Shown: positions 4,301 to 5,831, counted from the stretch's first letter. The stretch is 64,000 nucleotides of DNA from an uncultured Acidobacteriaceae bacterium (GCA_963758105.1 CAVWUC010000002.1:948167-1012166), one strand, 5' to 3'. Numbers and translations are program-made. Notes: a model not told the origin generated them from the letters alone.

Positions 4301-5831
4301 CGATATTGCGGCGCAGCTTGAGCAGGTAGCGGATGGTCGCGTAGAAGTCCTCCGGCGTCAGCGTCCGGTGATCCAGCGGCGTGGCGTCCTGGTTGTCGTA
4401 GAGCTTGATGTTGAACTTCAGTCGGCCCACGCGCGAAAAGTCGTACTTCCGCGGGTCGAAGAACATGCCCTCGAACAGCGACGTGGCCGTGTCCAGGGTG
4501 GGTGGATCGCCGGGGCGCAGCTTGCGGTAGATCTCGATCAGCGCCTCTTCCGGCTTGTGGATGGAGTCGCGCCGGAGGGTGTTGGAGATGATGTTGCCCA
4601 CGTCGTCGCGCTCGGGAAAGAAGACCTCAAAGCTGCTGACCCCGCCGGCCATCACCTTGTGCAGCCGGTCGGCGGTGAGCTCCACATTGGCCTCGACGAT
4701 CACCTCGCCGGTCTCGGTATTGACCACCTCGGACGCGGTGAGGGCGCCGTCCAGCTCGGCCGATTCCACTTCGATCTTCTGGATGGCGGCCGCGCGGATG
4801 GACTTCAGGGTGTGGAGCGTGATCTTGCGCCCGCCGTGGGCGATCTCCTCGCCCTTGCTCACAATCTTGTGCGCGGGCTTGGCGCCGACCAGGTGGGTGG
4901 CGACGTGCGCGTCCTGCGGGACGATCCACTCCAGCTTGCCGTCGGCAATCTCCAGCCGGTCGACGGTGTAGAAAGTCTTGAGAATCTCCTCGTCGGAGCG
5001 CAGCCCGAGAGCGCGCAGGAAGATGGTGCCCAGGAACTTGCGCTTGCGGTCGATGCGCACATACAGCGTGTTCTTCTGGTCGTACTCGAACTCCACCCAC
5101 GAGCCGCGGTAGGGAATGATCTTGCCCAGGAAGTAGGTGCGGTTGTTGGCCGTCTCAAAAAAGACGCCGGGGGAGCGGTGCAGCTGCGAAACGATCACGC
5201 GCTCGGTCCCGTTCACGATGAAGGTGCCGTTGGGCGTCATCAGCGGAATATCGCCGAAGAACACCTCCTGCTCCTTGATGTCGCGGATCGACTTGGTCCC
5301 GGTCTCCGGGTCCTTGTCATATATAGTGAGCCGCACTGTCACCTTCAGCGGAGCCGAGAAGGTCATGCCGCGCTCCTCGCACTCCTGCTGGTCGTACTTC
5401 AGCTGCAGGCTCACCGGGTCGCCGCACTTGTTGCAGAAGTCGGGCGTGTTCTTGTTGTAGGTGCCGCACTTCTGGCAGAGCACGTCGCCGGGCAGGAAGG
5501 GATCGGTGATCACCATCGCGCCGCAATGCGAGCAGGCGGTGCGCAGGTGATGCAGGCCCTTCAGATGTCCGCACTTGCACTCCCAGTTGCCGATCGAGTA
5601 GTCGACAAAGTCCAGCTGCGAGATGGAGCGGAAGTCGGTGATGGGGAAGACCGACACGAAAACCGACTGCAGCCCCGAGTCGTCCCGCTCGTTGGGCAGC
5701 TTATCCATTTGCAGGAAGCGCTCATAGGAGCGGCGCTGGACTTCAATCAGGTTCGGAATCTGGGTGGTGGTGGGAATCTTGGAAAAATCGAGCCGGCTGC
5801 GGATCGCGCGCTTCTCGTTGGGCATGATCAC
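1344..5831 (-). CDS. rpoB: DNA-directed RNA polymerase subunit beta (1495 aa, with lineage-specific insertions)
   Basis: ORF-track protein has canonical beta motifs ([86 protein letters not shown]). Conserved position between rplL and rpoC. Confidence 0.99.

Follow-up and report, generated by a model that had tools for sequence, protein, structure and literature searches.

Lineage-specific insertions in the large subunits of bacterial RNA polymerase (RNAP) have repeatedly proved to be regulatory handles, as with SI1 for DksA, SI3 for pausing, and the actinobacterial beta-prime insert, and those characterised so far are, to our knowledge, all non-metal folds at sites other than the one considered here. 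Acidobacteriota are among the most abundant soil bacteria, and no RNAP from this phylum is found among the solved PDB structures. We analysed a stretch of 64,000 nucleotides from an uncultured Acidobacteriaceae bacterium (GCA_963758105.1 CAVWUC010000002.1:948167-1012166), hereafter the window, whose rpoB gene encodes a beta subunit with a 63-residue, eight-cysteine insert in its N-terminal beta1 lobe. The first half of this insert resembles the zinc-binding domain (ZBD) found at the N-terminus of the beta-prime subunit. All positions are window coordinates, and the calls rest on sequence computation.

A 2024 survey of RNAP insertional domains described five lineage-specific beta sites in uD2, uD3, uD4, and uD5, with none in the N-terminal beta1 segment (PMC11515920 section 2.2), and the survey does not mention zinc (PMC11515920). 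Opalka et al. cite beta-i4, beta-i9, and beta-i11 for Acidobacteria, with nothing at the N-terminal beta1 site. Like these catalogued inserts (beta-i4/SI1, beta-i9/SI2, beta-i11, and BBM2/BEAN), the insert in the window is a clade-specific domain that occupies a surface loop within a conserved domain of beta and follows phylogeny. Unlike them it lies at another site, is much smaller, and would be metal-dependent, being built of putative Cys4 zinc ribbons; BBM2 inserts have the BEAN fold (CATH 3.90.105.10) at one of the five described sites, whereas a pair of Cys4 ribbons in the N-terminal beta1 segment was found here. No description of the insert was found in the literature searched, in which queries for beta-i1 or beta-In1 and for zinc-ribbon inserts in beta returned nothing relevant; the catalogue of Lane and Darst 2010, which lay outside that search and whose numbering would allow for beta-In1-3 upstream of residue 225, may list it uncharacterised. 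As far as the literature searched goes, no metal-binding insert in beta has been described before, and a conserved, ZBD-like module of eight cysteines on the docking lobe of Mfd and CarD would be the first.

The beta1 domain is a four-stranded antiparallel sheet backed by helices, the edge strand 4 of which (E. coli I117-K118-E119) pairs with the Mfd RID, and it has been termed a regulatory hot spot (Westblade et al., PMC3001067). The IKE Mfd determinant was intact in the window RpoB. The lobe corresponds to the Pol II protrusion and is near the upstream part of the bubble, and the CarD C-terminal domain wedges at -12 (Bae et al., PMC4593161). According to a spirochete preprint, CarD on the protrusion contacts the template strand at -13 to -15, and a sigma element reaches toward the ZBD at -17 to -19 (bioRxiv 10.64898/2026.02.09.704077). 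The CarD and Mfd RID domains and RbpA are akin to the insert in that they use the beta1 lobe or the upstream fork, near the bubble's upstream edge, and they set a precedent for extra protein mass that stabilises open complexes or couples repair. They are however proteins in their own right, of Tudor-like or other fold, and bind to strand 4, whereas the insert is covalent and occupies the hairpin of strands 1 and 2.

The insert, its site and its distribution

Minus-strand translation of the window gave exactly the residues that the original prediction had quoted for the insert in rpoB and for the ZBD in rpoC, and the cysteine pattern CxC-x12-CxxC-x15-CxxC-x10-CxxC was as it had claimed. In a global alignment the rpoB product was 57% identical to E. 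coli RpoB, and the extra residues fell between E. coli residues 73 and 80, so that the predicted junction between YRLGEP and VFDVQEC was correct. All 51 distinct bacterial beta sequences in the PDB aligned around, or only after, query residues 81-141, and 0 of 51 covered them; no solved RNAP has the insert. Taken together, the translation, the E. coli alignment, and the 51 PDB sequences establish that the insert is real and lies at the claimed site. Alignment with RpoB of other bacteria, which the original prediction had proposed as a check, delimited the insert: the insert-free loop has 2-8 residues in E. coli, in the 51 solved bacterial beta chains, and in the nearest insert-less relatives, whose N-termini have an ..EPK loop and are named Myxococcota. 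Judging from these alignments, the site is probably a hairpin loop of the beta1 lobe (protrusion), at the turn between putative strands 1 and 2. The beta1-lobe crystallisation constructs 3MLQ and 4XAX aligned on both sides of the insertion point.

We further investigated how widely the insert occurs. A homologue search with the window RpoB returned more than 7800 matches, of which the best 120 were inspected; the insert was present in all 120 (79-97% identical), and their source names were mostly acidobacterial (Terriglobales, Terriglobus, Sulfotelmatobacter). A species scan, with one genome per GTDB species and matches confirmed by tblastn, yielded at least 591 confirmed insert matches, the best 80 of which were Terracidiphilus and other Acidobacteriaceae, so that the scan describes breadth within one family and not across classes and marks the source of the window as a Terracidiphilus-like organism. 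A HMMER search of 1.8 billion cluster representatives reached divergent copies down to 47% identity over the N-terminal 224 residues. When the most divergent copy was used as the query, 119 more sequences were obtained, every one with an insert of 62-63 residues (119/119), and several of these, named Aminicenantes, Saccharicenans, or Pyrinomonadaceae, had all eight cysteines. The insert was thereby seen in Terriglobia, in Blastocatellia-type (Pyrinomonadaceae) sequences, and in Aminicenantia-type sequences, and is apparently carried by much of Acidobacteriota. Its occurrence in one clade, at a fixed loop position of a shared domain, and its absence elsewhere are those of a lineage-specific insert of an RNAP large subunit. 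We regard an ancient lineage-specific insertion, found so far only in Acidobacteriota, as reasonably probable, a judgement that is joint with the rest of the explanation given below. The insert would serve as a clean phylum indel marker for rpoB taxonomy and for primer or probe design.

Shorter forms were also present. Two small lineages of metagenome-assembled genomes, one of them named Acidobacteriota, had single-ribbon inserts of 30-32 residues, WACSCGELEGIEHTRNGSVCNYCGDRVHLKVE and WECECGEYKGLGGPQMKCEVCGKPLVYKPK. In a neighbour-joining tree of the flanking residues, one short-form lineage was placed within the long-form clade and the other next to that clade but not in it, with bootstrap values below 50 for both placements. 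In addition, in four metagenomic RpoB fragments from close relatives (P0046, P0033, P0138, and P0120), either the knuckle 2-3 unit was duplicated internally or one ribbon was precisely deleted; in the P0138 type the breakpoints coincided with the repeated CxxCG knuckles, and in P0120 they flanked ribbon 2. These fragments could be assembly artefacts or products of real recombination, and the latter could explain how single- and double-ribbon forms interconvert.

Conservation of the insert was assessed with 24 representatives chosen at less than 70% mutual identity, which were also used for the profiles below. All eight cysteines, the Trp before the first knuckle, and one Val were invariant among them, and the non-cysteine positions conserved above 90% included the Lys between the first two cysteines (96%), L, G, and R (R19, 92%). 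The full spacing C-1-C-12-C-2-C-15-C-2-C-10-C-2-C was exact in 262 of the 285 homologues retrieved. Natural length variation was confined to knuckle 2 (CxxC or CxxxxC) and to the linker between knuckles 2 and 3 (15-16 residues); the x12 and x10 spacings were fixed across the family, and the 1-12-2 pattern was kept in essentially all intact homologues. Across 77 related species, the ratio of nonsynonymous to synonymous substitution rates (dN/dS) was 0.067 for the insert versus 0.043 for the flanking segments of beta, which are conserved universally. The insert is under strong purifying selection, and its constraint equals that of the enzyme core.

An origin of the insert as an artefact of assembly or annotation, or as the remnant of a mobile element or intein specific to this contig, is extremely improbable. 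The fragments with internal duplications or deletions, few in number, are what speaks for such an origin, and against it stand the intact reading frame, the occurrence of the same insert in the confirmed species-genome matches, complete chromosomes included, and the purifying selection. Assembly error was thus ruled out, as the original prediction had expected. The possibility of an intein or mobile-element remnant was likewise rejected, for Pfam scans gave no intein or transposase signatures and the insert is widely distributed under purifying selection.

Two ribbons of different affinity

The original prediction had proposed that the first knuckle pair copies the pattern of the beta-prime ZBD, and had pointed to its spacing and to a gapless match of 11 in 26 residues to the ZBD of this genome's own rpoC. 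That match was reproduced (BLASTP, 11/28 identities, 32 bits, pairwise E 7e-07). We then compared a first-half profile of 32 columns, built from the 24 diverse sequences, with 177,635 distinct PDB sequences, a set that contains many zinc ribbons. Ranks 1-6 and 8 were beta-prime or cyanobacterial gamma chains in the exact ZBD register, the best E value was 0.0017, and most of the 78 matches at E<10 were beta-prime chains. In a scan of the 18,950 NCBIfam models, the top three were rpoC or gamma models, again in the ZBD register (E 0.012-0.023). Comparison of the insert profile with a small, shallow ZBD alignment by hhalign gave a probability of 93-96% (95.7% for the first half) and a score of about 37, versus 50% and a score of 18 when the first half was set against the second ribbon of the same insert, and 32% and 18.5 for the second ribbon against the ZBD. 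When the ZBD columns were shuffled 300 times with the cysteine columns fixed, the scores had a mean of 12.6, a standard deviation of 3.9, and a maximum of 31, and none (0/300) reached the observed 37.9; shuffles with a position-specific scoring matrix (PSSM), also with the cysteines fixed, gave p values of 1e-4 to 5e-6 for five different beta-prime ZBDs. Based on the PDB and NCBIfam rankings, the lower-scoring generic-ribbon controls, and both shuffle tests, the resemblance to the ZBD is specific at the level of sequence profiles and does not merely reflect two knuckles.

The four cysteines of the first half have the CxC-x12-CxxC spacing that is found in the beta-prime of this genome and in that of E. 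coli. Similarity extended beyond the cysteines, with marginal E values, to W/Y and E/Q before the first knuckle, C-x-C-G, a hydrophobic residue at +3, His or an aromatic residue at +8, and C-x-x-C-G-x-x-V. Both modules are moderately basic (the mean net charge of the first module is +2.4, and beta-prime ZBDs have a similar charge of +2 to +4), belong to the same enzyme, and are encoded about 4.5 kb apart. They differ in that the ZBD is at the beta-prime N-terminus, on the clamp by the RNA exit channel, whereas the insert lies in the beta1 lobe of beta; being in beta, the insert's module can be at most a paralogous copy of the ZBD and not the ZBD itself. Moreover, the K/R-rich loop of the ZBD is replaced in the insert by G-x-L-x-G-L-x-H-L-R, the ZBD-like module is fused to a second ribbon, and the likeness is one known at the sequence level. 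The ZBD of rpoC was for its part nearly identical across 61 acidobacterial loci.

The second knuckle pair, described in the original prediction as a classic zinc ribbon, matched Pfam DZR, Zn_Ribbon_1, and DUF7577, in the case of the window sequence just under their thresholds; for DZR (PF12773) the window insert scored 26.9-27.2 bits versus a gathering threshold of 27.3. All 24 diverse members matched DZR at E<=10, with a best value of 1.3e-7, and the match covered the second half only. A profile search of the PDB returned the double-zinc-ribbon protein DZANK1 (6e-8) as well as eL40, bL32, and RanBP2/NZF fingers, the RanBP2 finger of RBM10 being matched at E 0.011. The pattern C-x2-C-x3-N-x6-C-x2-C fitted the Terriglobia sequences, and its Asn was lost in Aminicenantes-type sequences. 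The RanBP2-type family itself (PF00641) was matched by 12 of the 24 members and at E 4 by the window member, and the Trp in the signature of this finger type, W-x-C-x2-4-C-x3-N-x6-C-x2-C, was absent. The second half is accordingly classed, from these profile matches, as a generic DZR or RanBP2-like ribbon. It fits the CxxC-x10-CxxC ribbons of the Pfam DZR and zinc_ribbon families (PF12773, PF13240, and RanBP2-type PF00641) alike. DZR modules are usually free-standing or terminal, whereas the insert is nested in a polymerase core domain and its knuckle 1 is CxC instead of CxxC. A further parallel is Rpo12/RpoP (Rpb12), a small Cys4 ribbon on the second-largest subunit of archaeal and eukaryotic RNAP, which the insert profile matched across knuckles 2-3 at E 8.6e-4; it is, however, a separate subunit at another location, and the likeness is at the generic-ribbon level.

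Proposed zinc pairing, origin and role of the module

The insert was modelled together with short flanking stretches in AlphaFold2, from an alignment of 51 sequences. The model had a mean predicted local distance difference test (pLDDT) score of 86.6, with 93-95 across the insert, and showed all four knuckles flanked by short strands, with a turn of helix at GLHHL. Knuckles 1 and 4 were at the base of the insert, beside the paired beta1 strands. The insert is most likely a tandem of two ribbons that together bind two zinc ions, and tandem pairing of the cysteines (knuckles 1+2 and 3+4) is favoured for several reasons: the x12 and x10 spacings never vary, whereas the linker between knuckles 2 and 3 does; the natural deletion variants (the P0138 type and P0120) keep CxC-x12-CxxC; the ZBD itself pairs the equivalent ligands; and knuckles 3+4 give the strongest independent ribbon matches.

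The best explanation of these observations has several parts, and taken as a whole we hold it to be somewhat more probable than the opposite. The insert would be a compact module of 63 residues, its eight cysteines invariant, that was grafted in Acidobacteriota onto the surface at the hairpin which joins strands 1 and 2 of the beta1-lobe sheet. Its ribbon 1 (CxC-x12-CxxC, basic) would be a homologue of the beta-prime N-terminal ZBD that probably arose by duplication, as an old copy of a piece of about 30 residues of the neighbouring rpoC; a segmental copy of this kind is the simplest origin because the ZBD-like ribbon and the true ZBD lie so close together, in adjacent genes. Ribbon 2 (CxxC-x10-CxxC, acidic, with a mean net charge of -2.1) would be a generic DZR/RanBP2-type ribbon. 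The whole may form a rigid, zinc-stabilised docking surface on the beta1 lobe, and the basic ZBD-like half may contact the nucleic acid of the upstream promoter or bubble, or a factor bound there, with the true beta-prime ZBD roughly opposite on the other side of the DNA. Such a role is proposed since the beta1 lobe docks the Mfd and CarD RID domains and adjoins the upstream fork of the bubble; that the module touches DNA or a factor is an inference from this position. If true, the ZBD-like insert would illustrate how the two catalytic subunits can exchange a domain, and it offers a concrete target for deletion and structural studies of how transcription initiation differs in Acidobacteriota.

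A number of observations weigh against this explanation. Cysteine-rich motifs inflate profile scores, and the best unbiased E values for the ZBD relation are marginal (0.0017 and 0.012). PF04997, the beta-prime N-terminus, was missing at E<=1 for the single insert and from the top 25 families for the 24 members, of which all matched DZR. For most basic residues of the beta-prime ZBD loop (GKYKRxKHRG) the insert showed no conservation, and the net charge of the entire module is close to neutral. A fold search with the AlphaFold2 model gave no significant structural match to beta-prime. The interpretation in the original prediction is supported in part: the relation to the ZBD stood at the sequence level, and the fold comparison spoke neither for nor against it. 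The first half modelled alone reached a pLDDT of only 61, which suggests that the two halves pack into one unit. The halves may be interdependent and the zinc pairing could be nested (1+4 and 2+3), an arrangement in line with knuckles 1 and 4 being at the base of the insert and with the alignment of several ribbon families to knuckles 2+3. Finally, Acidobacteria are listed as having CarD (PMC4593161 Table 1). The idea that the insert replaces CarD was dropped for this reason, as it is not a simple CarD substitute.

We weighed other explanations of the module against the same evidence. The insert might be a generic DZR-type double zinc ribbon whose ZBD resemblance arose by convergence or chance from the same small CxC/CxxC architecture. 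The uniform DZR matches, joined by matches to DZR_2 and Zn_ribbon_3 with PF04997 not reported, are in line with this, as are the better matches of the whole-insert profile to DZANK1, RpoP/Rpo12, and eL40 than to beta-prime, and the outcome of the fold search. However, the DZR-type matches stem from knuckles 2-4, whereas the best match of knuckles 1-2 was the ZBD, in exact register and in two independent libraries (PDB and NCBIfam). The scores also beat the cysteine-fixed shuffles and the comparisons with the insert's own second ribbon, and the shared positions outside the cysteines (W, E/Q, G, hydrophobic +3, aromatic/His +8, and G after CxxC) argue against chance, leaving a generic origin unlikely though with an appreciable share of the probability. 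Alternatively, the module could be a structural clip and nothing else, its two zinc sites serving to stiffen or extend the beta1 hairpin, perhaps through nested 1+4/2+3 coordination, and lacking any ligand of its own. Cys4 lids and ribbons come and go in adenylate kinases and ribosomal proteins, and Zn-lid adenylate kinases were among the non-significant Foldseek matches. The contrast between the confident model of the whole insert and the poor one of its first half, the position of knuckles 1 and 4 at the base, and the single ribbon of some lineages would all suit a clip. On the other hand, the surface positions outside the cysteines are strongly constrained (K 96%, R19 92%, dN/dS 0.067) and the length of the insert is invariant across classes, a degree of constraint beyond the needs of a passive clip, and the site is known as a hot spot of regulation; a mere clip is in our view unlikely. 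Should the module be such a passive zinc clip, it would keep its use as a signature but be of modest mechanistic interest.

The eight cysteines could instead act as a redox- or zinc-sensitive switch that adjusts RNAP activity during oxidative or metal stress. The idea draws on the general knowledge that Zn(Cys)4 sites, when exposed, can serve as thiol switches, and on the eight surface cysteines that the insert adds. The same ligands have a structural role in the canonical beta-prime ZBD, and the insert is conserved also in Aminicenantes, which are largely anaerobic and in which oxidative signalling is less likely. A switch is therefore very unlikely. Returning to the ZBD-derived docking module, its boldest form would be an intra-operon transfer of the ZBD from rpoC into the beta1 lobe of rpoB, such that two ZBDs face each other across the upstream DNA, the core enzyme holds about 4 Zn, and the basic ribbon contacts DNA just upstream of -10 or cooperates with CarD/Mfd. 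This form is speculative, and we give it a minor but real chance. If true, the insert would be a built-in, metal-dependent determinant of open-complex stability, known in no other bacterial phylum.

Gene setting and additional observations

The genes at this end of the window run on the minus strand in the canonical order rplJ-rplL-rpoB-rpoC. The coordinates of the features discussed are collected in the table.

Table. Features of the rpoB-rpoC region of the window, in window coordinates, with the basis of each call.
Feature	Position	Strand	Basis
rpoB, RNA polymerase beta subunit	1344-5831	-	1495-codon open reading frame; all Rpb2 Pfam domains; TIGR02013, 1817 bits
63-residue lineage-specific insert, N82-L144	5400-5588	-	translation; sits in the strand 1-strand 2 hairpin of the beta1 lobe
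First zinc module (putative), CxC-x12-CxxC, beta-prime ZBD-like	5511-5588	-	profile versus PDB, NCBIfam, hhalign, PSSM shuffles
11-residue linker between the two zinc modules	5478-5510	-	spacing table
Second zinc module (putative), CxxC-x10-CxxC, DZR/RanBP2-like ribbon	5412-5477	-	Pfam DZR, Zn_Ribbon_1, DUF7577; PDB profile
Canonical beta-prime ZBD of rpoC	835-912	-	translation; 137 bits to solved beta-prime chains
rpoC, 5' part, extends past the window start	1-1113	-	in-frame translation aligned by eye to the E. coli RpoC N-terminus; upper coordinate approximate

The mechanically called reading frame of rpoB opens with GTG (5826-5831), two codons upstream of an ATG. The homologues begin at MPNEK, and the true start is therefore probably the ATG at codon 3 rather than the GTG. 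Apart from the beta1 insert, the window RpoB carries proteobacterial-type inserts reported for Acidobacteria. Relative to E. coli it has a charged extra segment of 42 residues at residues 677-718 (3678-3803), near E. coli residue 605, two small additions at residues 1130-1143 and 1167-1173 in the SI2 region, and a 17-residue C-terminal tail at residues 1476-1492.

The gap between rplL (6619-7068, minus strand) and the start of rpoB is unusually long, about 790 bp (5832-6618). It contains a 148-residue reading frame without a Pfam match (5946-6392, minus strand) and one weak terminator-like site (6504-6516), and could be a leader or attenuator region or hold a small unannotated gene. Further upstream, rplK (14491-14928, minus strand) and rplA (8011-8793, minus strand) are about 5.7 kb apart, with genes for a NicO nickel transporter (9104-10174), a PilZ-domain protein (10911-12035), and a DnaJ-domain protein (12925-13692) between them, all on the plus strand; in an Aminicenantes-like locus (L081), unlike in the window, rplK and rplA are adjacent. 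Upstream of rplK, at 16099-19528, the standard order tRNA-Thr/Tyr/Thr/Gly - tuf - tRNA-Trp - secE - nusG was found, with all five tRNAs on the minus strand.

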